This document shows, piece by piece, positions 6,250 through 40,875 of a DNA stretch of 64,000 bases. Each line of letters opens with the position of its first letter. Position 1 is the stretch's first letter. The notes under the pieces are model-generated. The model saw only the letters and a program-made list of their open reading frames with translations. It was not told the DNA's origin and ran no database searches. The DNA is taken from NCBI RefSeq assembly GCF_051903065.1, contig NZ_CP178438.1; one strand, written 5' to 3'. The position numbers and the translations under genes are program-made. Source of the DNA: Escherichia coli. GTDB lineage: Bacteria > Pseudomonadota > Gammaproteobacteria > Enterobacterales > Enterobacteriaceae.

Positions 6250-6927
6250 ATGAATACCAGAATGCTTTTTCCCCTGCTGTTCACTGTGGCATCCTTCTCC
6301 ACCTCCGCCGGTAACTGGGCTGTCAAAAACGGCTGGTGTCAGACCATGACGGAAGATGGTCAGGCGCTGGTAATGCTGAAAAATGGCACGATTGGTATTA
6401 CCGGCCTGATGCAGGGATGCCCGAATGGCGTACAGACGCTCCTGGGCAGCCGTATCAGTATTAACGGTAACCTGATCCCCACATCACAAATGTGTAATCA
6501 GCAGACAGGATTCAGGGCTGTTGAGGTGGAAGTCGGACAGGCGCCGGAAATGGTCAAAAAAGCCGTTCACTCCATAGCAGAGCGTGATGTGTCCGTTTTA
6601 CAGGCATTTGGTGTACGAATGGAATTCACCCGCGGTGATATGCTGAAGGTCTGTCCGAAATTTGTCACATCACTTGCCGGTTTTTCCCCGAAACAGACAC
6701 CCGCCATTAATAAAGATTCCGTCCTGCAGGCTGCCCGGCTGGCATACGCCCGGGAATATGACGAGGAAACAACAGAAACCGCTGATTTTGGCTCTTACGA
6801 AGTAAAAGGCAATAAGGTTGAGTTTGAAGTGTTCAATCCTGAAGACCGTGCGTACGACAAAGTGACCGTCACGGTTGGTGCTGACGGTAATGCCACCGGT
6901 GCCAGCGTTGAATTTATCGGAAAATAG
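6250..6927 (+). CDS. Secreted protein of unknown function (N-terminal signal peptide)
   Basis: 225 aa; hydrophobic N-terminus MNTRMLFPLLFTVASFSTSAG; occupies the slot downstream of the GTPase where flu (Ag43) sits in CP4-44. Confidence 0.55.
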   Translation: MNTRMLFPLLFTVASFSTSAGNWAVKNGWCQTMTEDGQALVMLKNGTIGITGLMQGCPNGVQTLLGSRISINGNLIPTSQMCNQQTGFRAVEVEVGQAPEMVKKAVHSIAERDVSVLQAFGVRMEFTRGDMLKVCPKFVTSLAGFSPKQTPAINKDSVLQAARLAYAREYDEETTETADFGSYEVKGNKVEFEVFNPEDRAYDKVTVTVGADGNATGASVEFIGK

Positions 6928-6956
6928 CCGGTATGTCGGACTGTCACCCTGTTTAA

Positions 6957-7166
6957 TTGCCCGAAGGCCCTTTCTCACGCGAACAGGCGGTTGCCGTCAC
7001 AACAGCTTACCGCAATGTGCTTATTGAAGATGACCAGGGAACGCATTTCCGGCTGGTTATCCGTAATGCTGAAGGTCAGTTGCGCTGGCGGTACTGGAAT
7101 TTTGAATCCGATGCCGGAAAACAGCTTAATGTGTGGCTCGCCAGTGAAGGGCTTCTCAGACAATAA
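6957..7166 (+). CDS. Small conserved island protein (DUF905-like)
   Basis: 69 aa ORF followed directly by a hairpin plus T-tract terminator; family recalled from CP4-like islands; start uncertain. Confidence 0.4.
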
Positions 7167-7189
7167 ACGTCATTCATTTCATCCATCAG

Positions 7190-7220
7190 GCCGCGTCTTC
7201 TCCGGGAGGCGCGGCTTTTT
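7190..7220 (+). terminator. Rho-independent terminator
   Basis: GCCGCG ... CGCGGC stem followed by TTTTT. Confidence 0.6.
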
Positions 7221-7256
7221 CATTTATATCGCTAACTCATTCATAAGGAGCAAATC

Positions 7257-8075
7257 ATGCGATTAGCAAGTCGTTTTGGTTATGCGAACCAGATACGCCG
7301 TGACCGCCCCTTAACTCGCGAAGAACTGATGCAGGTCGTCCCCAGCGTATTCGGGGAAGATAAGCACACATCCAGAAGCGAGAACTATACCTGGATCCCC
7401 ACCATCACCGTGCTGGAAAGCCTGCAGCGGGAAGGCTTTCAGCCCTTCTTTGCCTGCCAGACCCGCGTACGTGACCCGGGCCGCCGGGGGTATACCAAAC
7501 ACATGCTGCGTCTGCGCCGTGACGGGGAGATAAACGGACAACATGTCCCTGAAATCATCCTGCTGAACTCCCATGACGGTACCTCCAGCTACCAGATGCT
7601 GCCGGGTTACTTCAGGTTCGTCTGCCAGAACGGCTGCGTCTGTGGTCAGTCTCTGGGGGAAGTGCGTGTTCCGCACCGGGGAAATGTGGTGGACAGAGTC
7701 ATTGAAGGGGCTTACGAAGTGGTGGGCGTTTTTGACCGGATTGAGGAAAAGCGTGATGCCATGCAGTCGCTGGTCCTGCCGCCACCGGCACGCCAGGCGC
7801 TGGCACAGGCGGCACTGACTTACCGTTATGGTGACGAACATCAGCCCGTCACCACCGCCGACATTCTGACGCCACGACGCCGGGAGGATTACGGTAAGGA
7901 CCTGTGGAGTGCTTATCAGACCATCCAGGAAAATATGCTGAAAGGCGGGATTTCTGGTCGCAGCGCTAAAGGAAAACGTATCCACACCCGTGCCATTCAC
8001 AGCATCGACACGGACATTAAGCTCAATCGCGCATTGTGGGTGATGGCAGAAACGCTGCTGGAGAGCATGCGCTGA
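7257..8075 (+). CDS. DUF932-family protein (YfjQ/YafZ-like)
   Basis: 272 aa; recalled similarity to YfjQ/YafZ; conserved position upstream of the antirestriction gene. Confidence 0.75.
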   Translation: MRLASRFGYANQIRRDRPLTREELMQVVPSVFGEDKHTSRSENYTWIPTITVLESLQREGFQPFFACQTRVRDPGRRGYTKHMLRLRRDGEINGQHVPEIILLNSHDGTSSYQMLPGYFRFVCQNGCVCGQSLGEVRVPHRGNVVDRVIEGAYEVVGVFDRIEEKRDAMQSLVLPPPARQALAQAALTYRYGDEHQPVTTADILTPRRREDYGKDLWSAYQTIQENMLKGGISGRSAKGKRIHTRAIHSIDTDIKLNRALWVMAETLLESMR

Positions 8076-8166
8076 TGCTGTTTCCCTGAAAGTGCAACCC
8101 TGACTCACGTCTGTACCAGTCCCCGGGCATTCTTCCATTCATTTACTTTTTATAAGGAATCATCTC

Positions 8167-8652
8167 ATGACAACCTTTTCGCATAGCTCCACCACGCCTT
8201 CTGTTTCCGTAACCACTGCACCAGGGAATAACCAGTCTCAACTGGTTGCCACTCCCGTCCCTGATGAACAGCGCATCAGTTTCTGGCCGCAACATTTTGG
8301 CCTCATTCCACAGTGGGTGACCCTGGAGCCCCGTGTCTTCGGCTGGATGGACCGTCTTTGCGAAGACTACTGCGGTGGTATCTGGAATCTGTACACCCTG
8401 AACAACGGTGGGGCATTTATGGTACCCGAACCGGATGACGATGATGACGAAACATGGGTACTGTTCAATGCCATGAACGGCAACCGCGCTGAAATGAGCC
8501 CGGAAGCCGCCGGCATTGCCGCCTGTCTGATGGCGTACAGTCATCACGCCTGTCGTACAGAGAATTATGCCATGACGGTCCATTATTATCGGTTGCGGGA
8601 TTACGCCCTGCAGCATCCGGAATGCAACGCCATTATGCGCATCATCGACTGA
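8167..8652 (+). CDS. Antirestriction protein, ArdB/KlcA-like (YfjX/YafX family)
   Basis: 161 aa; acidic stretch PEPDDDDDETW; family and position typical of CP4-like islands. Confidence 0.75.
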   Translation: MTTFSHSSTTPSVSVTTAPGNNQSQLVATPVPDEQRISFWPQHFGLIPQWVTLEPRVFGWMDRLCEDYCGGIWNLYTLNNGGAFMVPEPDDDDDETWVLFNAMNGNRAEMSPEAAGIAACLMAYSHHACRTENYAMTVHYYRLRDYALQHPECNAIMRIID

Positions 8653-8667
8653 ATGGAGAGAAGCACA

Positions 8668-9144
8668 ATGCAACAGCTTTCCTTTCTGCCCGGAGAGATG
8701 ACGCCCGGCGAGCGCAGCCTCATTCTGCGGGCCCTGAAAACCCTGGACCGCCATCTTCATGAACCCGGTGTGGCCTTCACCTCCACGCATGCGGCACGGG
8801 AATGGCTGATTCTGAACATGGCGGGACTGGAGCGGGAAGAGTTCCGGGTACTGTATCTGAACAACCAGAATCAGCTGATTGCCGGTGAAACCCTCTTCAC
8901 AGGCACCATCAACCGCACGGAAGTCCATCCCCGGGAGGTAATTAAACGTGCCCTGTACCACAATGCCGCTGCCGTGATACTGGCACACAACCACCCGTCC
9001 GGTGAAGTCACCCCCAGTAAGGCAGATCGCCTTATCACGGAACGCCTGGTACAGGCACTGGCCCTGGTGGATATCCGGGTACCGGACCATCTGATAGTTG
9101 GTGGCAACCAGGTTTTCTCCTTTGCGGAACACGGTCTGCTTTAA
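8668..9144 (+). CDS. yeeS: RadC-like JAB/MPN domain protein (YeeS/YfjY/YkfG family)
   Basis: JAMM motif HNHPSG; near identity to recalled YeeS from MQQLSFLPGEMTPGERSL; ORF track starts 15 nt upstream at 8653. Confidence 0.85.
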   Translation: MQQLSFLPGEMTPGERSLILRALKTLDRHLHEPGVAFTSTHAAREWLILNMAGLEREEFRVLYLNNQNQLIAGETLFTGTINRTEVHPREVIKRALYHNAAAVILAHNHPSGEVTPSKADRLITERLVQALALVDIRVPDHLIVGGNQVFSFAEHGLL

Positions 9145-9212
9145 CCCGTCACCGCCACAACCATATCACACCTGTTTTCACTTTTATCTTCTGTCTTCAG
9201 AGGTATCCCACT

Positions 9213-9434
9213 ATGAAAATCATCACCCGTGGCGAAGCCATGCGTATTCACCGTCAGCATCCGGCATCCCGTCTTTTTCCGTTCTGTACCGGCAAATACC
9301 GCTGGCACGGCAGTGCTGAAGCGTATACCGGTCGTGAAGTGCAGGATATTCCCGGTGTGCTGGCCGTGTTTGCTGAACGCCGTAAGGACAGTTTTGGCCC
9401 GTATGTCCGGCTGATGAGCGTCACCCTGAACTGA
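9213..9434 (+). CDS. yeeT: DUF987 protein (YeeT-like)
   Basis: 73 aa MKIITRGEAMRIHRQHPASRLFPF... matches recalled YeeT. Confidence 0.85.
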   Translation: MKIITRGEAMRIHRQHPASRLFPFCTGKYRWHGSAEAYTGREVQDIPGVLAVFAERRKDSFGPYVRLMSVTLN

Positions 9435-9513
9435 GTCTGGAAGGGCATTCAGAAGAGCAGAATTATCGCCACCACCGGACCATTCTTAACCAATTTTCTG
9501 TGAGGATTTTATC

Positions 9514-9888
9514 GTGTCAGACACTCTCCCCGGGACAACGCATCCCGACGATAACAACGACCGCCCCTGGTGGGGGCTACCCTGCACCGTGACGCCCTGT
9601 TTTGGGGCACGTCTGGTGCAGGAGGGTAACCGGTTGCATTACCTTGCAGACCGCGCCGGTATCAGAGGCCGGTTCAGCGACGCGGATGCGTACCATCTGG
9701 ACCAGGCCTTTCCGCTGCTGATGAAACAACTGGAACTCATGCTCACCAGCGGTGAACTGAATCCCCGCCATCAGCATACCGTCACGCTGTATGCAAAAGG
9801 GCTGACCTGCAAAGCCGATACCCTCAGCAGTTGTGGTTACGTTTATATGGCTGTTTATCCGACACTGGCACCCGCAACCACCTCATAA
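9514..9888 (+). CDS. cbeA: CbeA (YeeU) antitoxin of the CbtA/CbeA type IV toxin-antitoxin system
   Basis: 124 aa; near identity to recalled YeeU (MSDTLPGTT...WWGLPCTVTPCFGARLVQEGNRLHYLADRAGIRG). Confidence 0.9.
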   Translation: MSDTLPGTTHPDDNNDRPWWGLPCTVTPCFGARLVQEGNRLHYLADRAGIRGRFSDADAYHLDQAFPLLMKQLELMLTSGELNPRHQHTVTLYAKGLTCKADTLSSCGYVYMAVYPTLAPATTS

Positions 9889-9934
9889 CCCCGAATATCT
9901 CACCTTTAGCACTACCAGTTACAGAGAACTTAAG

Positions 9935-10312
9935 ATGAAAACATTACCTGACACACACGTACGGGAGGCATCGCGCTGCCCGTCTCCCGTCACCATCTGG
10001 CAGACACTGCTCACCCGACTGTTGGACCAGCATTACGGCCTCACACTGAATGACACACCGTTCGCTGATGAACGTGTGATTGAGCAGCATATTGAGGCAG
10101 GCATTTCACTGTGCGATGCGGTGAACTTTCTCGTTGAAAAATACGCACTGGTACGTACCGACCAGCCAGGATTCAGCGCCTGTACCCGTTCTCAGTTAAT
10201 AAACAGTATTGATATCCTCCGGGCCCGCCGGGCAACCGGCCTGATGGCCCGCGACAATTACAGAACGGTAAATAACATTACCCTGGGTAAACATCCGGGG
10301 GCGAAACAATGA
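9935..10312 (+). CDS. cbtA: CbtA (YeeV) toxin, cytoskeleton-binding type IV toxin
   Basis: 125 aa from ATG 9935 (MKTLPDTHV...); matches recalled YeeV (LNDTPFADERVIEQHIEAGISLCDAVNFLVEKYALVRTDQPGFSA); directly downstream of cbeA. Confidence 0.9.
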   Translation: MKTLPDTHVREASRCPSPVTIWQTLLTRLLDQHYGLTLNDTPFADERVIEQHIEAGISLCDAVNFLVEKYALVRTDQPGFSACTRSQLINSIDILRARRATGLMARDNYRTVNNITLGKHPGAKQ

Positions 10313-27904: not shown

Positions 27905-29047
27905 TTAAATCTGCTTTTCATACAATCGGTAACGCTTGTACGGCTCCGCCCCAATGCGTTCCAGCATGTTATTCATGCCTGTATTGGTTTCGAGGATCCA
28001 TGACATCTCCAGCGCATCGATCTTCCGGCGGGCAAACGGATCGCGTAAGGCTTCAATCAATAACAGCGCAATCACCGGGCCGATGCGGCTGAACTGATAC
28101 TCGTCGCGCACGCCCATCAGCGGTACTCTCGCAGTTCGCACACCGCTGACTTTCAAACGCCACAGCAATTTTGCCCAGCCGAAGGGAAAGAGCGATCCGT
28201 TCAGATCGGCAATCGCCTCGTTGATGTTCGGCAAGCCGACAATAAACGCGCAGGGTGCAGAATCAATCTCAGCGATGTAGATCATATCGTCCGGCACCAG
28301 ATATTTAAGTTGGTCGCCCATGGTCGCGAATTCATGTTCGGTAAACGGCACAAATCCCCAGTTGTGCTGCCAGCCAGAGTTGAAAATCTCACGCAGGATC
28401 TGCATCTCTTCGGCAAACCGCTGACGATTGATGCAGCGAATGGTCACCTTTTTGCGCACCTGATCCATCAGTTTTTTTAGCGCCGGAGAGAAAGTGAGAT
28501 CGGTTCGCTGCATCCACCACGCCAGTAAATCAATGCCTTTGTGATAACCCAGTTGTTCAATATGCGCGGCATACCACGGTTTGCCGTGTGGCATCATCGC
28601 ACAGGGTGGTGTATCGAAACCTTCAATCAGTAATCCGCTTTCCTGATTGATATTCAGGCTGAAAGGACCGCTGATCTTACTTGCACCTTGTGACTTCAAC
28701 CACGCTTCCGCTGCGCCAAACAACGCGGCAAAAACCTGCGGATCATCAATGGCGTCAATCATGCCGAAATGACCGGTATCTTCGCCGTAACGCTCGCGGT
28801 GTAAGGTATCGATTTGCGCGGTAATACGCCCAACTATCTGCCCGGCTATTTTTGCCACCCACGCCTGCCAGATGATATGGTCCGTCCCCGGATTTTTCAC
28901 AGACAAATGCTCGTTGCGTTCAATGAATAAAGGGGGTATCCAGTTTGGATCGTCGGGATAAAGTGATGACGGAAAAGCGATAAATGCCTTAAGGTCATTT
29001 TTATTAGTTACTTTTTCAATTTGAATCATTAGCAGATCGCATTCCAT
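27905..29047 (-). CDS. yghO: YghO, predicted acyl-CoA N-acyltransferase fold (candidate ceramide-synthase-like enzyme)
   Basis: 380 aa intact ORF matching recalled YghO; acyltransferase fold is recalled annotation, not verified here. Confidence 0.75.
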   Translation of the reverse strand: MECDLLMIQIEKVTNKNDLKAFIAFPSSLYPDDPNWIPPLFIERNEHLSVKNPGTDHIIWQAWVAKIAGQIVGRITAQIDTLHRERYGEDTGHFGMIDAIDDPQVFAALFGAAEAWLKSQGASKISGPFSLNINQESGLLIEGFDTPPCAMMPHGKPWYAAHIEQLGYHKGIDLLAWWMQRTDLTFSPALKKLMDQVRKKVTIRCINRQRFAEEMQILREIFNSGWQHNWGFVPFTEHEFATMGDQLKYLVPDDMIYIAEIDSAPCAFIVGLPNINEAIADLNGSLFPFGWAKLLWRLKVSGVRTARVPLMGVRDEYQFSRIGPVIALLLIEALRDPFARRKIDALEMSWILETNTGMNNMLERIGAEPYKRYRLYEKQI

Positions 29048-29418
29048 AGTTCTGTAGATAACAAAAAATTAACGGTGACAAACAGGTTGCAACAGCAACG
29101 AACGGCATCTTAATAATCAACCCAATGAATACAAACGACGAATAAATAGTATTTATTAATGATTACGATAAGGTCAGAGACTACACAGAAGCGCCACAAT
29201 GCCTTTTGTCGATTTAAGGCGACCGGACAAGGCTTCTTCTTAATATATTCATAAATTAAATATCATTCACAATAAAAACAAAAAAACTCAAACTCATTAT
29301 TTAAATCAATGTTCATTTTCACACTGATGAAAATACTATCTCATTTATCTTTTATGCCTATATAATCCACCGCATTATTGTCATTTTATTTTGGATATCC
29401 AATTTTTTCGTGGTGTAT

Positions 29419-31140
29419 ATGTCTAATAAAATCTTTACGCATTCCCTACCTATGCGCTATGCCGATTTTCCAACGCTGGTTGATGCTTTGGACTACGCCG
29501 CTCTGAGTAGCGCTGGAATGAATTTTTATGACAGACGTTGCCAACTTGAAGATCAACTGGAATATCAGACGTTAAAAGCGCGTGCCGAAGCTGGTGCGAA
29601 GCGGTTGTTATCGCTAAACCTGAAAAAAGGCGATCGCGTGGCGCTGATTGCCGAAACCAGTAGCGGGTTCGTAGAGGCTTTTTTTTCCTGCCAGTATGCC
29701 GGCTTAGTCGCCGTCCCGTTGGCGATTCCAATGGGCGTCGGTCAGCGGGATTCCTGGAGCGCCAAACTGCAGGGTTTACTGGCAAGTTGCCAGCCCGCTG
29801 CCATTATCACTGGTGATGAGTGGTTGCCGCTGGTCAATGCCGCCACGCATAACAACCCCGAATTGCATGTATTAAGCCACACCTGGTTTAAGGCATTACC
29901 GGAAGCCGATGTTGCGCTCCAGCGTCCAGTTCCGAACGATATCGCCTACCTCCAGTACACCTCCGGCAGCACCCGTTTTCCCCGTGGCGTCATTATCACC
30001 CATCGCGAAGTGATGGCTAATCTACGTGCTATAAGCCACGACGGCATTAAATTACGCCCTGGCGACCGCTGCGTCTCCTGGCTGCCTTTCTACCATGATA
30101 TGGGACTGGTCGGCTTTCTCCTGACCCCCGTCGCCACGCAGCTTTCAGTAGATTATTTGCGCACTCAGGATTTTGCCATGCGTCCTCTGCAATGGCTTAA
30201 ATTGATCAGTAAAAATCGCGGCACCGTTTCCGTTGCGCCGCCGTTTGGCTATGAATTGTGCCAGCGCCGCGTGAATGAAAAAGATCTCGCTGAACTGGAT
30301 CTTTCCTGCTGGCGCGTCGCTGGTATTGGTGCAGAACCCATCTCCACAGAACAACTCCATCAATTCGCTGAATGTTTCCGTCAGGTTAACTTTGACAATA
30401 AAACTTTCATGCCGTGCTACGGACTGGCAGAAAATGCGCTGGCTGTCAGCTTCTCTGATGAAGCCTCCGGGGTTGTGGTTAACGAAGTGGATCGCGACAT
30501 CCTCGAATATCAGGGTAAAGCCGTCGCGCCGGGTGCAGAGACACGCGCCGTATCGACTTTCGTCAACTGCGGCAAAGCGTTGCCGGAACATGGTATTGAA
30601 ATCCGCAATGAAGCAGGTATGCCGGTCGCGGAACGTGTGGTAGGCCATATTTGCATCTCCGGTCCCAGTCTGATGAGCGGTTACTTTGGCGACCAGGCTT
30701 CGCAAGACGAGATTGCCGCGACGGGCTGGTTAGACACTGGCGACCTCGGATATCTGCTGGACGGTTATCTGTATGTCACCGGACGCATTAAAGATCTGAT
30801 TATTATTCGTGGCCGTAATATCTGGCCGCAGGATATTGAATATATAGCGGAACAGGAACCGGAAATTCATTCTGGCGATGCGATTGCTTTTGTTACCGCC
30901 CAGGAAAAAATCATTTTGCAGATCCAGTGTCGGATCAGCGATGAAGAACGTCGCGGGCAGCTTATCCACGCGCTGGCGGCACGGATCCAAAGCGAATTTG
31001 GCGTGACCGCGGCTATCGATCTGTTGCCGCCCCACAGTATTCCCCGAACGTCCTCCGGCAAGCCTGCCCGTGCGGAAGCGAAAAAACGTTATCAGAAGGC
31101 TTATGCTGCAAGCCTTCATGTGCAGGAATCCCTGGCATGA
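29419..31140 (+). CDS. Fatty acyl-AMP ligase / acyl-ACP synthetase (adenylate-forming enzyme)
   Basis: AMP-binding motifs YTSGSTRFPRGV and TGDLGY; ORF track begins at GTG 29410, first ATG at 29419. Confidence 0.85.
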   Translation: MSNKIFTHSLPMRYADFPTLVDALDYAALSSAGMNFYDRRCQLEDQLEYQTLKARAEAGAKRLLSLNLKKGDRVALIAETSSGFVEAFFSCQYAGLVAVPLAIPMGVGQRDSWSAKLQGLLASCQPAAIITGDEWLPLVNAATHNNPELHVLSHTWFKALPEADVALQRPVPNDIAYLQYTSGSTRFPRGVIITHREVMANLRAISHDGIKLRPGDRCVSWLPFYHDMGLVGFLLTPVATQLSVDYLRTQDFAMRPLQWLKLISKNRGTVSVAPPFGYELCQRRVNEKDLAELDLSCWRVAGIGAEPISTEQLHQFAECFRQVNFDNKTFMPCYGLAENALAVSFSDEASGVVVNEVDRDILEYQGKAVAPGAETRAVSTFVNCGKALPEHGIEIRNEAGMPVAERVVGHICISGPSLMSGYFGDQASQDEIAATGWLDTGDLGYLLDGYLYVTGRIKDLIIIRGRNIWPQDIEYIAEQEPEIHSGDAIAFVTAQEKIILQIQCRISDEERRGQLIHALAARIQSEFGVTAAIDLLPPHSIPRTSSGKPARAEAKKRYQKAYAASLHVQESLA

Positions 31141-32051
31141 ATCAAACTGTCGCGGTGACGGGCGCTACCGGTTTTATCGGTAAATATATTATCGATAACC
31201 TGCTCGCCCGCGGCTTTCACGTTCGCGCATTGACGCGTACTGCCCGCGCTCACGTCAATGATAATCTCACCTGGGTGCGCGGTTCGCTGGAAGATACTCA
31301 TTCACTTAGCGAACTGGTTGCCGGAGCCAGTGCGGTGGTCCATTGCGCCGGGCAAGTGCGCGGACACAAAGAGGATGTCTTTACTCGCTGTAACGTTGAC
31401 GGTAGCCTGCGCTTGATGCAGGCGGCAAAAGAGAGCGGCTTTTGCCAACGTTTTCTATTTATCTCTTCGCTGGCGGCGCGCCATCCCGAGCTCTCCTGGT
31501 ATGCAAAATCCAAACATGTCGCCGAACAACGACTGGCAGCAATGGCGGACGCAATTACGCTGGGCGTTTTTCGCCCAACGGCAGTCTATGGCCCCGGCGA
31601 TAAAGAGTTAAAACCACTGTTTGACTGGATGCTGCGCGGCCTGCTGCCACGGCTGGGCGCACCAGATACACAGCTCTCTTTCCTGCACGTCACCGATTTC
31701 GCACAAGCCGTGGGTCAGTGGTTAAGCGCCGACTCCGTACAGACGCAAACGTATGAATTATGTGATGGTGTCGTCGGTGGCTATGACTGGCAGCGCATAC
31801 AACAACTGGCCGCCGCCGCCCGCCAGGGAGCTGTACGGATGGTCGGCGTTCCTCTGCCGTTGCTCACCTGCCTTGCGGATATCAGTACCGCGTTGAGTCG
31901 CCTGGCAGGTAAAGAACCTATGCTGACCCGCTCGAAAATTCGTGAATTAACCCACGCCGACTGGTCGGCAAGTAATAACCGTATTTCTGAAGATATTAAT
32001 TGGTTTCCCGGGATTAGCCTGGAACACGCATTACGCAACGGGCTATTTTGA
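31137..32051 (+). CDS. Extended SDR (NAD-dependent epimerase/dehydratase family) reductase
   Basis: Rossmann GATGFIG at N-terminus and YAKSK (YxxxK) motif; start overlaps the upstream stop (ATGA). Confidence 0.85.
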   Translation: MNQTVAVTGATGFIGKYIIDNLLARGFHVRALTRTARAHVNDNLTWVRGSLEDTHSLSELVAGASAVVHCAGQVRGHKEDVFTRCNVDGSLRLMQAAKESGFCQRFLFISSLAARHPELSWYAKSKHVAEQRLAAMADAITLGVFRPTAVYGPGDKELKPLFDWMLRGLLPRLGAPDTQLSFLHVTDFAQAVGQWLSADSVQTQTYELCDGVVGGYDWQRIQQLAAAARQGAVRMVGVPLPLLTCLADISTALSRLAGKEPMLTRSKIRELTHADWSASNNRISEDINWFPGISLEHALRNGLF

Positions 32052-32082
32052 TTGTCTTGTTTAAAGGTGTGTTAACGTTTCT

Positions 32083-32331
32083 ATGGTAAATCGTGAAATA
32101 GTAATGGATTACATCCTTTCCTGTTTACAGGATTTGGTCGAAAACGGTGTGGAAATTAAGCCCGACAGCGATCTCGTCAACGATCTTGGCCTGGAGTCGA
32201 TCAAAGTGATGGATCTCTTAATGATGCTGGAAGACAGATTCGATATTTCCATTCCTATTAATATTCTGCTGGATGTCAAAACCCCTGCGCAATTAATGGA
32301 AACTCTACTTCCATGGCTGGAGAATAAATAA
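32083..32331 (+). CDS. Acyl carrier protein
   Basis: 82 aa; DLGLESIKVMDLLMMLED resembles the phosphopantetheine attachment region; AAGGTG upstream of ATG 32083. Confidence 0.7.
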   Translation: MVNREIVMDYILSCLQDLVENGVEIKPDSDLVNDLGLESIKVMDLLMMLEDRFDISIPINILLDVKTPAQLMETLLPWLENK

Positions 32332-33503
32332 TGGGGCTATACGATAAATATGCGCGCCTTGCTGGCGAGCGACTGCAATTTAGTGACAACGGGTTAACAC
32401 CGTTTGGCACCTGTATTGATGAAGTGTATTCCGCCACCGAAGGCCGGATCGGCAATAAAAAAGTGATTCTGGCCGGGACCAATAATTACCTCGGTTTAAC
32501 CTTTAATCATGATGCCATCGCCGAAGGTCAGGCAGCGTTAGCGACCCAAGGCACCGGCACCACCGGTTCTCGTATGGCAAACGGCAGTTATGCGCCGCAC
32601 CTGGCGTTAGAGAAAGAGATTGCCGAGTTTTTCAATCGCCCTACCGCTATCGTTTTTTCAACCGGTTATACCGCTAATTTAGGCGTCATCAGCGCACTTG
32701 CCGACCATAACGCCGTGGTGTTACTGGATGCCGACAGCCACGCCAGTATTTATGACGCCTGTTCTCTCGGTGGCGCGGAAATTATTCGTTTCCGCCATAA
32801 CGATGCTAAAGATCTGGAACGGCGCATGGTTCGCCTCGGTGAACGGGCGAAAGAGGCGATTATCATCGTTGAGGGCATCTACAGTATGCTCGGTGACGTT
32901 GCGCCACTGGCGGAAATTGTTGATATCAAACGTCGTCTCGGTGGTTATTTGATTGTCGATGAAGCGCATTCGTTTGGCGTGTTAGGCGCAACGGGGCGCG
33001 GACTGGCTGAAGCTGTAGGCGTTGAAGATGATGTGGATATTATCGTTGGCACCTTCAGTAAAAGTCTGGCCTCGATTGGCGGTTTTGCTGTCGGTTCGGA
33101 AGCGATGGAAGTGCTGCGCTACGGCAGCCGCCCGTATATTTTTACCGCCTCTCCTTCTCCGTCCTGCATTGCGACCGTGCGCTCGTCGTTAAGAACTATT
33201 GCCACACAACCAGAGCTGCGGCAAAAGCTGATGGATAATGCCAACCATCTGTATGACGGTCTGCAAAAACTGGGTTATGAGTTAAGTTCACATATTAGCC
33301 CGGTAGTGCCGGTAATAATCGGTTCGAAAGAGGACGGTTTACGCATCTGGCGCGAGCTTATTTCGCTGGGCGTTTATGTGAATCTTATCCTGCCACCTGC
33401 CGCGCCTGCAGGCATCACGCTGCTGCGCTGTAGCGTAAACGCTGCCCACAGTCGTGAGCAAATCGATGCCATCATTCAAGCGTTCGCTACTCTGAAGCAG
33501 TAA
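32331..33503 (+). CDS. PLP-dependent alpha-oxoamine synthase (serine palmitoyltransferase/BioF/Kbl family)
   Basis: 390 aa; PLP-lysine motif GTFSKSLASIGGF; start overlaps the ACP stop. Confidence 0.85.
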   Translation: MGLYDKYARLAGERLQFSDNGLTPFGTCIDEVYSATEGRIGNKKVILAGTNNYLGLTFNHDAIAEGQAALATQGTGTTGSRMANGSYAPHLALEKEIAEFFNRPTAIVFSTGYTANLGVISALADHNAVVLLDADSHASIYDACSLGGAEIIRFRHNDAKDLERRMVRLGERAKEAIIIVEGIYSMLGDVAPLAEIVDIKRRLGGYLIVDEAHSFGVLGATGRGLAEAVGVEDDVDIIVGTFSKSLASIGGFAVGSEAMEVLRYGSRPYIFTASPSPSCIATVRSSLRTIATQPELRQKLMDNANHLYDGLQKLGYELSSHISPVVPVIIGSKEDGLRIWRELISLGVYVNLILPPAAPAGITLLRCSVNAAHSREQIDAIIQAFATLKQ

Positions 33504-33537
33504 TGTGAGCCCGCTGTGGTGTTGCGCCACGGCGGGT

Positions 33538-34617
33538 TTAATGTTGTCTGTCATACCAATACACCAGGCTCAACGCCATCAACACAAACGCTACCGGTAA
33601 ACCGAGCGCGATAACAGGTGCGCTCAACGCAAATAGCAAACCCAGATTGACCATGATTTGATAGCTGATCCAGGTGAGTAAGCCAACGATGACGCCTACA
33701 GCGAGACGGCTACCCATCCCTGGCGAGCGCGGGGCGCTAAAGGTAAACGGCACAGCCAGCAAAATCATCGCCAGGGTCAGGATCGGTTGCCCCAGTTTTT
33801 CCCACAGTGCAAGGCGGTATTCGCTGCTGGGTTGCCCGGTTTCCTGCAAATAATGGATGTAATGATTAAGCTGACGGACAGAAAAAGTATTCCCCGGCAT
33901 CGATAGCTCTTCAAGATCCATACTGGTGAAGGCCGATTGCCAGGCAAGATTATCTGATGTTTCCAGCGTTTCTTTACCGTTAAGCCATTTTTTATGATTC
34001 ACACCATGCAGGATCCACATTTTGTCGTCTTTAATGGTGGCACTGCGTGCATAAATGTAGGATTCGAGCGAGAGATCGTCGCGATAATGAAATATCTCCA
34101 CGCCCACCGGCTGGCCCTGCTCGTTCAGCGATTTCACCGTTACAAATTCATTACCGCGCCTGGCCCAAAGCATATTGCCGGTAATATCATCGTCCTCCCC
34201 CAACGCAGTGGCGGTCGATTTGATTTGCAGCGCCTGTTGCTGCAATGGCGACGCTACCCACTCATCTATCGCGCCTAACGAAACAGTCCACAATATCCCG
34301 GCAACCAGCGCCACCAGTGCAATACGGAAGATAGAAAACCCCGTGCTGCGAATGGCGGTAAGCTCACTGTTTTTCGATAACTGCCCCAGGCCAACAATCC
34401 CTCCCAATAAGGCGATAAACGGCGAAAGTTCGACCAGTGTGCGCGGTAAGGTCATTAGCACCACCAGCACCGCCTGAGTCCAGCGATAACCGCCCGGGCT
34501 GACATCATCCAGTTCGTTAATCAGGTTGAAGGTGGTAAAAAGCGGCAGCAATAGCCCTGCGGCGGCGGCAAAACCGAGAAAGAGATGACGGATTAAATAG
34601 CGACTGAAAACATTCAT
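33538..34617 (-). CDS. LptG-like permease (YjgP/YjgQ family)
   Basis: Start MNVFSRYLIRHLFLGF; six-helix permease pattern; 4-bp overlap with the upstream LptF-like gene. Confidence 0.75.
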   Translation of the reverse strand: MNVFSRYLIRHLFLGFAAAAGLLLPLFTTFNLINELDDVSPGGYRWTQAVLVVLMTLPRTLVELSPFIALLGGIVGLGQLSKNSELTAIRSTGFSIFRIALVALVAGILWTVSLGAIDEWVASPLQQQALQIKSTATALGEDDDITGNMLWARRGNEFVTVKSLNEQGQPVGVEIFHYRDDLSLESYIYARSATIKDDKMWILHGVNHKKWLNGKETLETSDNLAWQSAFTSMDLEELSMPGNTFSVRQLNHYIHYLQETGQPSSEYRLALWEKLGQPILTLAMILLAVPFTFSAPRSPGMGSRLAVGVIVGLLTWISYQIMVNLGLLFALSAPVIALGLPVAFVLMALSLVYWYDRQH

Positions 34618-35684
34618 CGGGAAAATTTCTGCAGCAAAGAGAAGTCGCGTGCGACCAGCATCAGCAGGCCCATTAGCATGAGTCCGGGCACTAACCACAA
34701 ACCAGGAATGAGAGGAATCGCGCCGTTAGCCACCAGCGTACGGCAGACGTCGCCGCCATAAAAAATGACAACAAACAGCAACGTCAGTGGCAATAACGTT
34801 GAAAATCGCCCTTGCCGCGGTTTTACCCGACTTAATGAAATGGCCAGCAGCGCCATCAACAATGCGGTCAGGCCACGGCTTTGTCGCCATTGCAGTTCGG
34901 CATGATCGGCCGGAAAGACGGAGCGCGCCAGCTCCGTGACCGATTTTGCTTTGCGTTTGACGTTAGGGCTTTGATCCAGCGGATTCAGATGTAATTGCAG
35001 ATTACGGTAGATCTGTTCGTTGTCGTCACGCCCCTGATGATCGAGAAGATAGGCGGTGCCGTTGTGCAACATAACGGTCGGTTTCTCGGGAGATGGGTCA
35101 ACCACATCAACCGAACGGGCGCGGAAAATGCGGGTTCGATTGGCAGTAGAAGTATAAATCAGCGCGTCAGTCAGGCGATTATTATCCTGATCAACCGTCT
35201 GCGAAAGGATCATTCGTCCGTTATCGTTAGTGTTAAATTTCTTTGCCCGCAACTGGCGAACATCCAGCTCCGACTGCGACTGCTGCTCCAGTTGATAAAT
35301 CTGCGCATAAGCCCACGGACGACCATACATCGACAGAAGGGTGACAAAAATACTTAGCGGTATCGCCAGATAAAGAACGGCTTTGTACAAGCGTCCCGGA
35401 CTGCCCCCTGCCGCAGAGATAGCAGTAATTTCCGAGTCGGTATACATCTGCCCTAGCGTCACGCCAACTGACACATACAGTCCAACAGGTAACAACATCT
35501 CCAGTGCAATCAGCACCTTGTAGAAAACGATATCCAGCACAACATCAAGTGCTAATGTCCCATTTGCCGCTTCGGTCAGATAACGCTGTGCGGAGTAGCT
35601 GGCGAAAATAAAGATCAGAAAACCGACGATAATCAGCACCAGACGGCGCGTACCACGCATGATGTAGTGTTCAACCAGCTTCAT
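34614..35684 (-). CDS. LptF-like permease (YjgP/YjgQ family)
   Basis: 356 aa; MKLVEHYIMRGTRRLVLII; paired with the LptG-like gene. Confidence 0.75.
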   Translation of the reverse strand: MKLVEHYIMRGTRRLVLIIVGFLIFIFASYSAQRYLTEAANGTLALDVVLDIVFYKVLIALEMLLPVGLYVSVGVTLGQMYTDSEITAISAAGGSPGRLYKAVLYLAIPLSIFVTLLSMYGRPWAYAQIYQLEQQSQSELDVRQLRAKKFNTNDNGRMILSQTVDQDNNRLTDALIYTSTANRTRIFRARSVDVVDPSPEKPTVMLHNGTAYLLDHQGRDDNEQIYRNLQLHLNPLDQSPNVKRKAKSVTELARSVFPADHAELQWRQSRGLTALLMALLAISLSRVKPRQGRFSTLLPLTLLFVVIFYGGDVCRTLVANGAIPLIPGLWLVPGLMLMGLLMLVARDFSLLQKFSR

Positions 35685-35714: not shown

Positions 35715-36278
35715 TTATTCATTGATCAGTTTCTGCGCCAGCGCAATGACATGATCTACCTCTTCCGGCGTCAGGCTGCCGTCCTTTGCCCACTGAATTT
35801 GCCCGGTTTTATTCAGCACCAGAATGGTTGAACTCTGCTCCGGCAAGCGCCAGGCAACGCGTCCCTGTCCATTGCCGTCAATAACGAATTGCGCCCACGG
35901 ATAGCGGCGTTTATTTTTTTCGATTTTGCCAACGACAAAATAGCCAGTACCAAAGATGGCATCATCAGTGTTCACAATGGTGGTGGGCTGAAAACGATCC
36001 TGTGGAAAGTTTGCCGCTTCAACCGCTTTAATTAACAGTGAGTTCTTTTTCTTCGCCGACTTACGCCCGGCGATATACTGGATAATGCGGACTTTTCCCG
36101 CCAATTGTGTGCTGTTCCACTTTTGGTAGTGAATTTCGTCGTCGCTATTCAGAAGCAGCTCGCCGCCTTCCTGAATATAAACAGGGGTAACCGTTTTGCC
36201 AGTGACGAAATTGTGTGCCTGCACACCCGGGGCTAAGAGCATGATAATCAGCGCAATAATCAAACGAGATGACATCAT
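35715..36278 (-). CDS. YtfJ-family periplasmic protein (paralog)
   Basis: 187 aa with signal peptide; clear similarity to recalled YtfJ (TTIVNTDDAI...YPW.QF..D.NG...WQL...VLDK.G..QWAKDG.LTPEEV). Confidence 0.75.
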   Translation of the reverse strand: MMSSRLIIALIIMLLAPGVQAHNFVTGKTVTPVYIQEGGELLLNSDDEIHYQKWNSTQLAGKVRIIQYIAGRKSAKKKNSLLIKAVEAANFPQDRFQPTTIVNTDDAIFGTGYFVVGKIEKNKRRYPWAQFVIDGNGQGRVAWRLPEQSSTILVLNKTGQIQWAKDGSLTPEEVDHVIALAQKLINE

Positions 36279-36286
36279 TGCTCCGG

Positions 36287-37111
36287 TTATAGCGGAAAAC
36301 GCGAAATCAGCAGCTCTAAGCGCTGGCGAATATCGCTATCCAGCGCCACCGGTGCATCATACGACTGGCGGTTTTCCATATCATCCGCCACCATGTCGTC
36401 GTGTTTATCCCCCATCAGGCCATTAATGGCGGCGAGGAAACGGGAAATCTGTAACGCCTCTTTATTTTCAGGATCAAGCGATCTTAAGGTGTCGTAATAA
36501 GAAACCTGCTGGCTGATGATTTTTCGCACATCATGAAATTCCCTGCCGGTTAGTCGCGGTTTGGCAATTATCTCTTTCAGGGCATGCATTTGCTTTTGCC
36601 GATAGGCAATAAAACCGCTTACGCTTTCTAACTGGCTATGGCGTAATGAATAGTTCACCAACGACCAGACCGGAGAGCTTAAATAAATCCGTAACAGGTT
36701 GCCGTAATACGACACAATATTTTTCTTACCGTTACGAAACCCGTCCTGAAAACGTCCCAGAAAAACGGTCGTTTTGCCGAATAAAAATCCGGCCTGATGC
36801 TTCTTTAAATACAGCCGTTGCGCAAAACGCAGGTGCTTGTAGCGCGCTCGCATGTATTTAAATTGTTTGCGCTCATCAGCAGTCAGCTCATCGCCTTTGG
36901 CTTGTTTGCGAACTAAACGCAGTAATTCCTGACGATTAACGCCATTGAGCCAGAATTGCAGGCATAACGCGTAATTATCATGAATGATTTCGGTGGTACA
37001 ACTTAGTGCAATAGTCGGCGGCAAACTAACCTGTGCATCAACGACATCATCTTCTTCAATCGCAACAAATAGACGCTCGCTCGCCTCAAGCGGGAAATAT
37101 TTTCTCATCAT
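36287..37111 (-). CDS. Hypothetical protein
   Basis: 274 aa ORF between the YtfJ-like gene and yghQ; no motif recognised. Confidence 0.55.
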   Translation of the reverse strand: MMRKYFPLEASERLFVAIEEDDVVDAQVSLPPTIALSCTTEIIHDNYALCLQFWLNGVNRQELLRLVRKQAKGDELTADERKQFKYMRARYKHLRFAQRLYLKKHQAGFLFGKTTVFLGRFQDGFRNGKKNIVSYYGNLLRIYLSSPVWSLVNYSLRHSQLESVSGFIAYRQKQMHALKEIIAKPRLTGREFHDVRKIISQQVSYYDTLRSLDPENKEALQISRFLAAINGLMGDKHDDMVADDMENRQSYDAPVALDSDIRQRLELLISRFPL

Positions 37112-38460
37112 CAGGATTTCTCTCCGGCTGCGTTATAAAGCAAGGAATGGCGCTGAAAAAATGCCTTTAAGGTTGGAATTAACGAGAGCGCCACGTCCAG
37201 ACATTGCCCACCGAAGTAAGCAAACGCTGCTCCCAGCACGCCAAACAGATGACAGAACATGAACAGCAATACGATGTAGCCGATTGAGGCGATGGTTTGC
37301 GCCACGAGAAAAGCGCGCTGTTTTCCCGCCATCAATAGCAATGACTCCTGAGGGAAGCCCAGCATCGAGATCACAATTGCGCCCAGCATCACCTGAATCA
37401 GGTCATACGCTTCGAGATACTTAACGCCAAACACCAGCGAAATGAGCGGCTTGCCGACGATCAACACCGCGAGCGCCACCAGAATACCGATTCCGCCCGC
37501 CAGTAAACCGGACTTCACGCCTAACAACCACGGTCTGGTGGTGCGCGGATCTAAACGCATCACCTCTGGGTAAAAACTTTTACCCAGTAAACCCGCTGGC
37601 GTTCCGGCGGCGTCGAAGAATGTCATGGCGATTTTAAATAACCCGGCGGCAGCGGGTCCTAACACGATCCCCACCAACACTGTGCTGCACGAGTTACGTG
37701 CCGACCAGATGGAGTGGGCAATGTTGGTCGACCAGACAAAACTCCACGCGCCTTTAATGTGTCGGGCAGACTCAAACAGATTCAATTTGAAGGCGTTATG
37801 GATATTTCTGCGGCGTAATTCGCGCGCGGCAAACCACCAGTACATGGTGCCGCCAACCAGATTCGACACGTACCAGGCAATAACAAAACCCGCAAAACCA
37901 AAGTCAAAATACCAGGCTACGACGCTCCCCGCTGCGCGCAGAAAAGGTTTCGTCGCCTGCTGTACAGCAATCAAATCAAAGCGATCTACCGCACGCAGAA
38001 TGCCGGTCGGCGTGGAGGAAGCCATTGAAGGAATGAGCGTGCAATACAGCGCCGCCAGCCAAAAGCTTTGGTCATCCAGACCTAATGAATGGGAAAGGAA
38101 TGGCAGTAAGGCAATGCCGCCGACAATCGCCACCGCGCCGCTGACGATATCCAGCGAGAAGGAAAATGAGACGACATTGCGAAATTGCTGCGGATTATTG
38201 TTGGTTAATGCTGGTGTTCCGTACTGAACCACCAGCTGCCATGTCTGAAACTTAATAAAATCGCTGATCGACTTGGCGTACGATTGCACAATCACCAGTA
38301 CGCCAAACATGGCGGGCGTCATCCCTTTACCGGCACACGAGAGCGCCAACAGCCCCAGCAAAGCGCTCACGACATTACTGGAGCCTAACCAGGCGCTATT
38401 GCGAATAATGGTGCGAAACGCGCCATCTGCAAACCAATGTTTGATGTTAAAACCCGCCAA
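37111..38460 (-). CDS. yghQ: YghQ, MOP/Wzx-like polysaccharide/lipid flippase family membrane protein
   Basis: 449 aa polytopic membrane protein; synteny with yghRST. Confidence 0.75.
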   Translation of the reverse strand: MAGFNIKHWFADGAFRTIIRNSAWLGSSNVVSALLGLLALSCAGKGMTPAMFGVLVIVQSYAKSISDFIKFQTWQLVVQYGTPALTNNNPQQFRNVVSFSFSLDIVSGAVAIVGGIALLPFLSHSLGLDDQSFWLAALYCTLIPSMASSTPTGILRAVDRFDLIAVQQATKPFLRAAGSVVAWYFDFGFAGFVIAWYVSNLVGGTMYWWFAARELRRRNIHNAFKLNLFESARHIKGAWSFVWSTNIAHSIWSARNSCSTVLVGIVLGPAAAGLFKIAMTFFDAAGTPAGLLGKSFYPEVMRLDPRTTRPWLLGVKSGLLAGGIGILVALAVLIVGKPLISLVFGVKYLEAYDLIQVMLGAIVISMLGFPQESLLLMAGKQRAFLVAQTIASIGYIVLLFMFCHLFGVLGAAFAYFGGQCLDVALSLIPTLKAFFQRHSLLYNAAGEKS

Positions 38461-38505: not shown

Positions 38506-39264
38506 TTAAGTTAAACTTCGGCGGTCAGAAACGATGGCAACCAGAGAAACCGCCTTCTGTGCCTGTTCCAGCACTTCGCTGTAGGGCGCTCTGGAATCAA
38601 TCTCAAGAATTTTTGTGCCGTTATAGCCAATCGTCGACATAACACCGATTTTGTCCTGCAGCTCGGCATAGTCATGGTCAGGCTTGCGGGAGATGGCAGT
38701 CTCAATATCAATGCCCAGGCGAATAATTAATTCCGGGCGATATTGCGCCATTTGTTGGTATAAACGCCGTTCGCGCTGCGCCAGAAACATGCTTATTTTC
38801 CCGGTCGCACGTTCGACGCCAATCCCCGGTCCATCATAATAAAAGCCCGAAATTTCAGCCTGCGGGAAGCGATCGCTGACCACCAGAACGCCACTTTGCG
38901 CCAGTCGCTGAACCTTGCGTAGATTCGCCATTCTTCGCAGCGAGAAGCAGTACATAATCACCGCCGCCCATAGCGCCGGAGATTTGGTTTTCATGCTTTG
39001 GGTTTTCGAGGATTTGGCCGCCAGTCGCCGTTCCAGCCAGACGCCAACCAACGGCAATCGTTTGATTTTGTCGCCGTCTTCGCCCGAGAGCAGCCCCAAA
39101 TAGCGGCGCTCGGTTTGCCAGTGTTGTTGCAGCGATTTCACCAGGTCGGTGGTCAGCGTGGATTTACCGGTGCCATCACACCCGACCACCGCAATCAGCC
39201 CCGGAATGTAGTTGGGCTGCGGTGCGGTTGTACTATTAACAGTTTGTGTTTGTAGTGCATCCAT
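38506..39264 (-). CDS. yghR: YghR, P-loop ATP-binding protein
   Basis: Walker A GCDGTGKST; matches recalled YghR (MDALQTQTVNSTTAPQPNYIPGLIAVVGCDGTGKSTL). Confidence 0.85.
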   Translation of the reverse strand: MDALQTQTVNSTTAPQPNYIPGLIAVVGCDGTGKSTLTTDLVKSLQQHWQTERRYLGLLSGEDGDKIKRLPLVGVWLERRLAAKSSKTQSMKTKSPALWAAVIMYCFSLRRMANLRKVQRLAQSGVLVVSDRFPQAEISGFYYDGPGIGVERATGKISMFLAQRERRLYQQMAQYRPELIIRLGIDIETAISRKPDHDYAELQDKIGVMSTIGYNGTKILEIDSRAPYSEVLEQAQKAVSLVAIVSDRRSLT

Positions 39265-39295: not shown

Positions 39296-40009
39296 TCAGG
39301 AAAGCGCGGCGTGAATTGCGCGTAGTGACGCTTGCATAATTTCATCGGCTGGTTGCCGACCATCCAGTTCAAGGATCTTTGCGCCATTGAATGTCAGTTG
39401 CGGCGTAACGGCGATTTTTTCCTGTAACGCTGCCAGTTGGTGGTCAGGTTTACGCGCAAACGCGGTTTGTTCATCAATGCCAAGACGAATCAACAATACG
39501 GGTAAATAAGACGCCATCCATTGGTACAGCTTCAACTCGCGCTGCCTTAACATTTTTATCCAACCGTTACCGCCCGTGGTTTTTGCCAATTGCGGGCCAT
39601 CAAAGCGAAAACCCGGCACTTCAACCTGCGGGTAGCGGTCGGTGATGAGCAGATGGCCTTGCTGGCTTCTACACAACATTTTGCGAAACTTGTACGCCCG
39701 CCAGCAGGAAAGCAGATAGATAACCAGCGCAGTAATATTGCCAGGCGGTGTTGAGGGCTTTTCGTGCACATGTGCCGCTTTACTTCGCAGATAACGCCCA
39801 AAAGGTGCGCCAATAACAGGGAGCTGTGAAATCCATTCGCCAATTCGCCCGGACGATTGCCCGAGATAAATGCGTTCTGTTGGCATTCTTGCTGCCAGTT
39901 CATTTACCAGGCTTGCCGTGAGGGTCGATTTACCTGAACCATCACATCCTACAATGGCAATAACACGCACTGGCGTGGAATTAATTATTGACATATTACG
40001 TTGATTCAC
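39296..40009 (-). CDS. yghS: YghS, P-loop ATP-binding protein (YghR paralog)
   Basis: Walker A GCDGSGKST; 237 aa. Confidence 0.85.
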   Translation of the reverse strand: MNQRNMSIINSTPVRVIAIVGCDGSGKSTLTASLVNELAARMPTERIYLGQSSGRIGEWISQLPVIGAPFGRYLRSKAAHVHEKPSTPPGNITALVIYLLSCWRAYKFRKMLCRSQQGHLLITDRYPQVEVPGFRFDGPQLAKTTGGNGWIKMLRQRELKLYQWMASYLPVLLIRLGIDEQTAFARKPDHQLAALQEKIAVTPQLTFNGAKILELDGRQPADEIMQASLRAIHAALS

Positions 40010-40182: not shown

Positions 40183-40875
40183 ATGCAGTCAATAACACCT
40201 CCATTAATTGCCGTTATTGGTAGCGATGGTTCAGGCAAGTCAACGGTGTGTGAACATCTCATTACCGTTGTCGAAAAATATGGTGCTGCCGAAAGAGTTC
40301 ATTTAGGAAAACAAGCCGGAAATGTCGGTCGTGCAGTGACAAAATTACCGTTGATGGGAAAATCCTTACATAAAACAATTGAACGAAATCAGGTGAAAAC
40401 AGCAAAAAAATTGCCAGGACCAGTTCCGGCGCTGGTAATTACAGCGTTTGTCGCCCGTCGCTTACTGCGCTTTCGTCATATGCTTGCCTGTCGTCGTCGC
40501 GGGTTAATTGTTCTAACCGACCGTTATCCTCAGGACCAAATTCCTGGCGCTTACGATGGTACGGTGTTCCCACCTAACGTTGAAGGTGGTCGTTTTGTCT
40601 CATGGCTGGCAAGCCAGGAACGTAAAGCGTTTCACTGGATGGCGAGCCATAAGCCTGATCTGGTCATCAAACTCAATGTCGATCTAGACGTGGCCTGCGC
40701 GCGTAAGCCTGACCACAAAAGGGAGTCGCTGGCAAGAAAGATAGCCATAACGCCACAGTTAACCTTTGGTGGTGCACAACTGGTTGATATCGACGCCAAT
40801 CAGCCACTGGAACAGGTGTTAGTTGATGCAGAAAAAGCGATTACGGATTTTATGACCGCGCGTGGTTATCACTAG
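40183..40875 (+). CDS. yghT: YghT, P-loop ATP-binding protein (YghR/S paralog)
   Basis: Walker [10 protein letters not shown]; 230 aa. Confidence 0.85.

Follow-up and report, generated by a model that had tools for sequence, protein, structure and literature searches.

The yghO–spt locus of Escherichia coli, a highly probable member of the proteobacterial dihydroceramide clusters

Does an Escherichia coli strain carry the genes for making a ceramide, a lipid that has no place in the textbook lipidome of the species? The question is raised by positions 27905–33503 of a 64,000-nucleotide stretch of E. coli DNA (RefSeq assembly GCF_051903065.1, contig NZ_CP178438.1; the whole stretch is referred to below as the window), in which yghO lies divergent from four co-directional genes encoding a fatty acyl-AMP ligase (FAAL), an extended short-chain dehydrogenase/reductase (SDR), an acyl carrier protein (ACP) as well as a pyridoxal 5'-phosphate (PLP)-dependent oxoamine synthase, Spt. 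A preliminary description of the sequence had matched the five genes to the bacterial ceramide biosynthesis set, and had proposed that the strain may make a sphingolipid-like or amino-lipid product. We consider it highly probable that the locus represents, in E. coli, the dihydroceramide biosynthesis cluster of proteobacteria, which had been described before in E. coli B. The match to the ceramide set is supported, with the same five families present in Caulobacter and the set described in E. coli BL21(DE3) (PMC9386255). The sphingolipid reading of the gene set is likewise supported, although as an idea it is not new, having been published in 2022 (PMC9386255). The cluster is a known E. coli sphingolipid gene set, found in the specialist literature since that year and in the RefSeq annotation, where the genes at this locus are labeled "fatty acyl-AMP ligase", "NAD-dependent epimerase/dehydratase family protein", "acyl carrier protein", "spt: serine palmitoyltransferase" and "yghO".

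Layout of the locus and published work on its genes

The layout described previously, with yghO on the minus strand divergent from a co-directional FAAL-SDR-ACP-Spt run at 29452–33503, was confirmed, and all five open reading frames (ORFs) were found at their expected positions. yghO (27905..29047, minus strand, 380 aa) encodes a homolog of bacterial ceramide synthase (aca/bCerS family). Reading of the sequence and its composition showed that it is separated from the other genes by a divergent intergenic (promoter) region of 404 bp with 31% G+C (29048..29451). The first gene of the run, aasR (29452..31140, plus strand), encodes a fatty acyl-AMP ligase-type acyl-ACP synthetase of 562 aa when read from ATG 29452, which is the RefSeq start of the orthologous gene; the longest ORF begins at GTG 29410. 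It is followed by cerR/epi (31137..32051, plus strand, 304 aa), encoding the extended SDR of the NAD-dependent epimerase/dehydratase family, a putative 3-keto reductase; by acpR (32083..32331, plus strand, 82 aa), encoding a probable specialised ACP with a putative 4'-phosphopantetheine site at Ser39 (GLESI); and by spt (32331..33503, plus strand, 390 aa), encoding the PLP-dependent oxoamine synthase assigned as serine palmitoyltransferase (SPT). The overlapping start and stop codons noted earlier are present at the FAAL/SDR junction (4 nt, ATGA) and the ACP/Spt junction (1 nt), but the SDR and ACP genes are 31 nt apart. The sequence motifs were found as described, with GATGFIG at residue 9 and YxxxK (YAKSK) at residue 122 of the SDR, and GTFSKSLASIGGF from residue 240 of Spt, in which Lys244 is the PLP lysine.

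Padilla-Gómez et al. (2022, PMC9386255) list E. coli B, the enterotoxigenic strain B7A and BL21(DE3) as carriers of SPT. In BL21(DE3) the genes are named aca (yghO/ECD_02850), aasR (ECD_02851), epi (ECD_02852), acpR (ECD_02853) and spt (ECD_02854), and the same authors noted that C. crescentus and E. coli BL21 are alone in having all five dihydroceramide genes in one cluster (PMC9386255). In vivo labeling with beta-[3H]alanine showed that AcpR_Ec (ECD_02853) carries 4'-phosphopantetheine, and co-expression of AasR_Ec, AcpR_Ec and SPT_Ec led to formation of 3-oxosphinganine, which AasR supported with AcpR_Ec and not with AcpR_Cc (PMC9386255). In vitro, an SPT_Ec extract converted [14C]serine and palmitoyl-AcpR to 3-oxosphinganine, with a preference of the E. 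coli SPT for acyl-AcpR over acyl-CoA (PMC9386255). BL21 cells fed 3-oxosphinganine produced ceramide-like spots, which the authors credited to chromosomal ECD_02850 and ECD_02852 (PMC9386255). For E. coli UTI89, "sphingolipid operons" have also been drawn beside those of Caulobacter and S. wittichii (bioRxiv 10.64898/2026.04.12.717747).

To relate these experiments to the window, its proteins were aligned with those of the E. coli B-lineage strain B-LamR, which stands in for BL21(DE3) throughout this comparison. AcpR is identical over all 82 residues, and the others are identical at 388 of 390 positions (Spt, 2 substitutions), 375 of 380 (YghO, 5 substitutions), 552 of 562 (AasR, 10 substitutions) and 288 of 304 (SDR, 16 substitutions). 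At 95–100% protein identity, the differences are allelic only.

The arrangement was then followed across species. A one-genome-per-species profile scan with a 12-sequence YghO alignment gave a best 80 loci, drawn from genera other than Caulobacter and Sphingomonas, with YghO relatives 44–95% identical; these were searched by tblastn with the window proteins, and 51 of them have full 10-kb flanks. Among the fully flanked loci, an Spt homolog was present in 30 and FAAL, SDR and ACP homologs in 28–29, mostly in the same divergent layout, with the SDR homolog between aasR and acpR in 29. LptF-like and LptG-like permeases, discussed below as LptF2 and LptG2, were present in 35 and 37, respectively, and spt and/or lptF2/G2 lay within 10 kb of the yghO relative in 48 of the 51, spanning several phyla. 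The divergent yghO/FAAL-SDR-ACP-Spt layout recurs in Enterobacterales, Pseudomonas, Salinicola, Nitrococcus, beta-proteobacterial and other genomes, and this five-gene arrangement is not due to chance. In Nitrosomonas, lptF2-lptG2 come directly after the yghO relative, and the spt operon lies more than 10 kb away, in agreement with the published map of N. eutropha, where aca (Neut_1100) and spt (Neut_0461) occupy distant loci (PMC9386255).

Family assignment of the five enzymes and the proposed pathway

The family of Spt was assigned from curated hidden Markov model cutoffs, the ranking of PDB scores and the published enzymology. Spt scores 599.5 bits against the NCBIfam Spt equivalog NF047599 (cutoff 500), the sole family cutoff that it passes, and lies below those of the sister families bioF (334 bits, cutoff 426), Kbl (297.5, cutoff 460), CqsA (221.5, cutoff 428) and ALAS (219, cutoff 338.55). 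Its best solved relatives are the SPTs of S. paucimobilis (2jg2, 376.7 bits) and S. wittichii (2x8u, 373.6 bits), followed by Sphingobacterium SPT (264 bits), cysteate acyltransferase (205 bits), Kbl (203 bits), BioF (175–184 bits) and CqsA (125 bits); a grouping with BioF or Kbl was thus not observed. His137, Asp210, His213, Lys244 and Arg366 of Spt align with His159, Asp231, His234, Lys265 and Arg390 of the S. paucimobilis enzyme (2jg2). In addition, acpR lies immediately upstream of spt and overlaps its start by 1 nt, and an ACP homolog lies just 5' of spt in almost all of 38 related loci bearing spt.

One residue does not follow this pattern. Arg378 of S. paucimobilis SPT, which we take to contact the serine carboxylate, is replaced by Leu354 in the window Spt. 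This replacement, together with the breadth of the oxoamine synthase family, would fit an enzyme that does not use serine but, like BioF, Kbl, CqsA or a cysteate acyltransferase, acts on another substrate to give a different amino-lipid or a signalling alpha-hydroxyketone, and SPTs are known to be relaxed in amino-acid specificity (PMC9386255). Each of the 39 Spt homologs encoded beside yghO relatives, however, has a hydrophobic residue (L, I, V or F) at the equivalent position, so that Leu354 represents a lineage trait, while the Arg390 equivalent is invariant. A non-serine substrate is further opposed by the position of Spt above its own family cutoff and below those of BioF, Kbl, CqsA and ALAS, and by the gap of ~170 bits between the Sphingomonas SPTs and the best non-SPT match in the PDB. 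The preliminary description held that the substrate could not be decided from sequence, a caveat overtaken by experiment, since the BL21(DE3) SPT, given [14C]serine and palmitoyl-AcpR, makes 3-oxosphinganine (PMC9386255), and the Spt of E. coli B differs from that of the window at only 2 of 390 positions. We therefore regard a non-serine substrate as very improbable, and assign Spt as a serine palmitoyltransferase.

AasR passes the fatty acyl-AMP ligase model NF006624 with 874.7 bits (cutoff 600). For AcpR, ACP-family matches in NCBIfam were weak and all below cutoff (best 35.6 bits, cutoff 71), with Ser39 located in the GLESI motif. An NCBIfam scan of the SDR gave no model above cutoff (best HpnA, 95 bits, cutoff 367), and its top PDB matches include the NDUFA9/39-kDa subunits of complex I, with E-values down to 9e-12. 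Caulobacter CerR is homologous to NDUFA9 (PMC11087976), and CC_1164 and ECD_02852 share 34% identity (E 7e-38, 94% coverage), a value that, like that for YghO below, comes from Table S2 of PMC9386255 and not from our own alignment. The SDR gene is also the most variable of the cluster between E. coli lineages, with 288 of 304 residues conserved relative to E. coli B compared with 98–100% for its neighbors. The need for gaps in nucleotide alignments of this gene points to a recombination patch, or to relaxed constraint, within the C-terminal half.

YghO is the least well annotated of the five. Pfam and NCBIfam scans gave no match, and no significant match among PDB sequences was obtained with a profile of 57 YghO relatives (best E 0.3). 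A first-pass protein search returned close enterobacterial relatives only, and the large family of 375–390-aa proteins amounts to 6391 representatives at E ≤ 0.001. A Nitrosomonas eutropha relative from the genome scan is 49% identical, and PMC9386255 lists an ortholog in that species (Neut_1100). YghO is variously annotated as "DNA-binding protein", "N-acetyltransferase" and "dATP pyrophosphohydrolase". An AlphaFold model built with the 57 relatives was predicted with high confidence (pLDDT 96, pTM 0.92), and fold comparison identified it as a tandem GNAT. The objection that YghO might lack an acyltransferase fold fails because this very confident model is predicted to have one.

The absence of database matches and the inconsistent annotations would also be compatible with YghO being a protein or small-molecule acetyltransferase that merely adjoins the operon, and YghO was among the proteins of a K-12 lysine acetyltransferase screen. 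Against such a role outside the pathway stand the linkage to spt and/or lptF2/G2 in 48 of the 51 fully flanked loci of several phyla, the tandem GNAT fold, and the homology of ECD_02850 to CC_1154, whose requirement for ceramide synthesis is established genetically (44% identity, E 1e-107, 98% coverage; PMC9386255, Table S2). We accordingly give this alternative very little weight. From the bCerS homology, the fold and the conserved synteny, YghO is predicted to act within the pathway and to N-acylate 3-oxosphinganine or sphinganine.

These assignments are consistent with a pathway of five steps. AasR would adenylate a free long-chain fatty acid and transfer its acyl group to the 4'-phosphopantetheine arm on AcpR, the dedicated carrier. 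Condensation of acyl-AcpR with L-serine by Spt, using PLP bound to Lys244, would then release CO2 and form 3-oxosphinganine. Both steps have been demonstrated experimentally for the BL21(DE3) proteins, and the window versions are 98–100% identical to those of E. coli B. In the third and fourth steps, YghO, as a tandem-GNAT N-acyltransferase, would add an amide-linked acyl chain, and the NDUFA9-like SDR, as a CerR homolog, would reduce the 3-keto group to yield dihydroceramide; we infer these two steps from homology to genetically defined Caulobacter genes, fold and conserved synteny. The order of N-acylation and 3-keto reduction is disputed between two Caulobacter groups (PMC11087976 among the sources). 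Finally, by analogy with Caulobacter, LptF2/LptG2, probably with the housekeeping LptB, would draw the lipid out of the inner membrane so that it can be delivered to the outer one.

Conservation, loss and possible silence in E. coli

Of 5426 complete E. coli genomes, 4591 contain the 5.6-kb segment, with a chromosomal location in nearly every case, and 4067 have at least 80% of its length covered, with intact ORFs. Comparison of the window with two E. coli lineages gave dN/dS values of 0.02–0.16 for yghO, aasR, acpR, spt, lptG2, lptF2 and two downstream genes (the SDR gene, with its gapped alignments, was left out), indicating purifying selection that maintains the locus.

Several points weigh against the dihydroceramide reading. 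Roughly a quarter of the complete genomes lack an intact cluster. These include K-12, and in K-12-type genomes a 5'-truncated yghO of ~1.1 kb abuts IS5 and the remainder of the cluster is gone. Insertion sequences have entered the locus independently elsewhere: one E. coli genome (NZ_AP045789.1) is 100% identical to the window and carries IS1 inside yghO, and another (NZ_CP068283.1) carries IS5 at the locus. On the biochemical side, formation of 3-oxosphinganine was reported only for over-expressing strains (PMC9386255), and the literature searched holds no report of a sphingolipid from wild-type or unmodified E. coli. The acyltransferase activity of YghO and the reductase activity of the SDR are predictions for the E. 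coli proteins, their identities to the Caulobacter enzymes are taken from a published table, and Arg378 of S. paucimobilis SPT is not retained.

Part of this evidence would be explained if the cluster were intact but silent or conditionally cryptic, in a species that normally makes no sphingolipids and is losing the locus piecemeal. Such a state would account for the absent or partial clusters in about 25% of complete genomes, for the IS1 and IS5 insertions and for the lack of reported native sphingolipids. It also draws on the divergent region, in which no strong sigma-70 consensus was found; a scan of 29048–29451 gave no enrichment of sigma-70 sites over shuffled sequences (4 sites, 6.3 expected). 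The 31% G+C content of this region may fit a silenced or conditionally expressed locus, and may reflect xenogeneic silencing by a nucleoid protein or an unusual mode of regulation. Conversely, the dN/dS values indicate selection for function, the ORFs are intact in most genomes, and BL21 given 3-oxosphinganine produced ceramide-like spots (PMC9386255). Taken together, silence is a serious possibility to which we assign a somewhat less than even chance. As a separate observation, the neighbors of the divergent yghO/aasR region have about 52% G+C, far more than the region itself.

The textbook E. coli lipidome of phosphatidylethanolamine, phosphatidylglycerol, cardiolipin and lipid A derives from K-12, a strain that lost the locus by an IS5-associated deletion. 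In most natural E. coli the ceramide gene set is intact, maintained by selection and equipped with its own Lpt-type permeases. In Caulobacter, the pathway has a bearing on the barrier function of the outer membrane, on sensitivity to polymyxin or detergent, or on host interaction.

Permeases, accessory genes and comparison with known systems

Downstream of the biosynthetic genes, a scan for terminator-like sites detected a G+C-rich hairpin of 16 pairs (33506..33540) between the stop codons of the convergent spt and lptG2 genes, which is likely a bidirectional terminator. lptG2 (33538..34617, minus strand), encoding a second LptG-type permease, specifies 359 aa from the RefSeq-style start, with the longest ORF reaching 34698, and lptF2 (34614..35684, minus strand, 356 aa) encodes a second LptF-type permease. 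LptG2 scores 303.8 bits against TIGR04408 (cutoff 240) and LptF2 320.1 bits against TIGR04407 (cutoff 230). LptG2 matches enterobacterial LptG structures with only 142–147 bits, identifying it as a distant paralog of the housekeeping permease, and LptF2, likewise a distant paralog, matches enterobacterial LptF structures with 90–96 bits. The plain RefSeq names lptG and lptF for this pair are probably misleading. In Caulobacter, LptF2 and LptG2 assemble with each other and bind LptB, and their deletion is tolerated only if sphingolipid synthesis has been switched off (bioRxiv 10.64898/2026.04.12.717747). The window pair corresponds to these proteins, whose link to sphingolipid transport was tested in Caulobacter only.

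Six further genes are possible accessories. On the minus strand are genes for a YtfJ-family protein (35715–36278) and an unannotated, all-helical, CHAD-like basic protein of 274 aa (36287–37111), followed by yghQ (37111–38460), yghR (38506–39264) and yghS (39296–40009), and on the plus strand is yghT (40183–40875). YghQ is weakly MOP-flippase-like, and the three paralogs YghR/S/T are weakly similar to dTMP-kinase-like P-loop proteins. In several Enterobacterales, linkage of yghQ, yghR, yghS and yghT to the ceramide cluster is preserved, and lptG2, lptF2 and the YtfJ-family gene likewise accompany it in this order. In a beta-proteobacterial metagenome-assembled genome, spt and the yghO relative are separated by YghQ-, YghR- and YghS-like genes (6814–9983 of locus L039), and in Pseudomonas marginalis a YghR/S/T-like gene follows spt. 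A position near 3740 of locus L012 is recorded with these arrangements. On the strength of this linkage, yghQRST are candidate members of the ceramide pathway. K-12 keeps yghQ, yghR, yghS and yghT despite the loss of the biosynthetic core.

Two other roles were considered and dropped. A PADLOC scan of YghO and the accessory genes detected no defence-system family, which disfavors a defence role for them. YghR/S/T were rejected as counterparts of the Caulobacter ceramide kinase CpgB because the enzyme types differ, CpgB being of the LCB5/DAG-kinase type and YghR/S/T being weakly dTMP-kinase-like P-loop proteins. The head-group genes of Caulobacter comprise an LCB5-type ceramide kinase, a CDP-alcohol transferase, nucleotidyltransferases and a phosphoesterase (PMC11324152, PMC10331486). 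The accessory genes at the E. coli locus belong to families other than these ceramide-phosphoglycerate genes. It is conceivable, though in our estimate unlikely, that strains in which the locus is intact produce an outer-membrane lipid dependent on spt under non-laboratory conditions, with its head group or export provided by the periplasmic YtfJ-like, CHAD-like, YghQ and P-loop kinase-like YghR/S/T proteins. On that reading, given the difference in families, the product would be an undescribed class of sphingolipid.

Among known systems, the closest is that of E. coli BL21(DE3) (ECD_02850–ECD_02854), which, as judged from strain B-LamR, shares with the window the locus, the gene order and the flanks, with glcC upstream and the lptG/lptF-like genes downstream. 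BioF, Kbl, CqsA and ALAS have in common with Spt the fold-type I PLP family and the lysine motif, and Spt remains below the cutoff of each. The SPTs of Sphingomonas paucimobilis and S. wittichii (2jg2, 2x8u) match Spt over its full length, with the PLP lysine and the His, Asp, His and Arg390 positions retained. In Caulobacter crescentus, the counterparts are spt (CC_1162), acpR (CC_1163), cerR (CC_1164), aasR (CC_1165) and bcerS (CC_1154), with lptF2/lptG2 at CC_1156/CC_1155. None of the genes between glcC and yghT resembles Caulobacter cpgB, the CDP-alcohol transferase, the nucleotidyltransferases or lptC2; in place of the Caulobacter head-group genes, E. coli has the YtfJ-like, CHAD-like, YghQ and YghR/S/T genes. 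The E. coli gene order is compact and divergent, unlike that of Caulobacter, while the five enzyme families and an LptF2/G2 pair clustered nearby are common to both.

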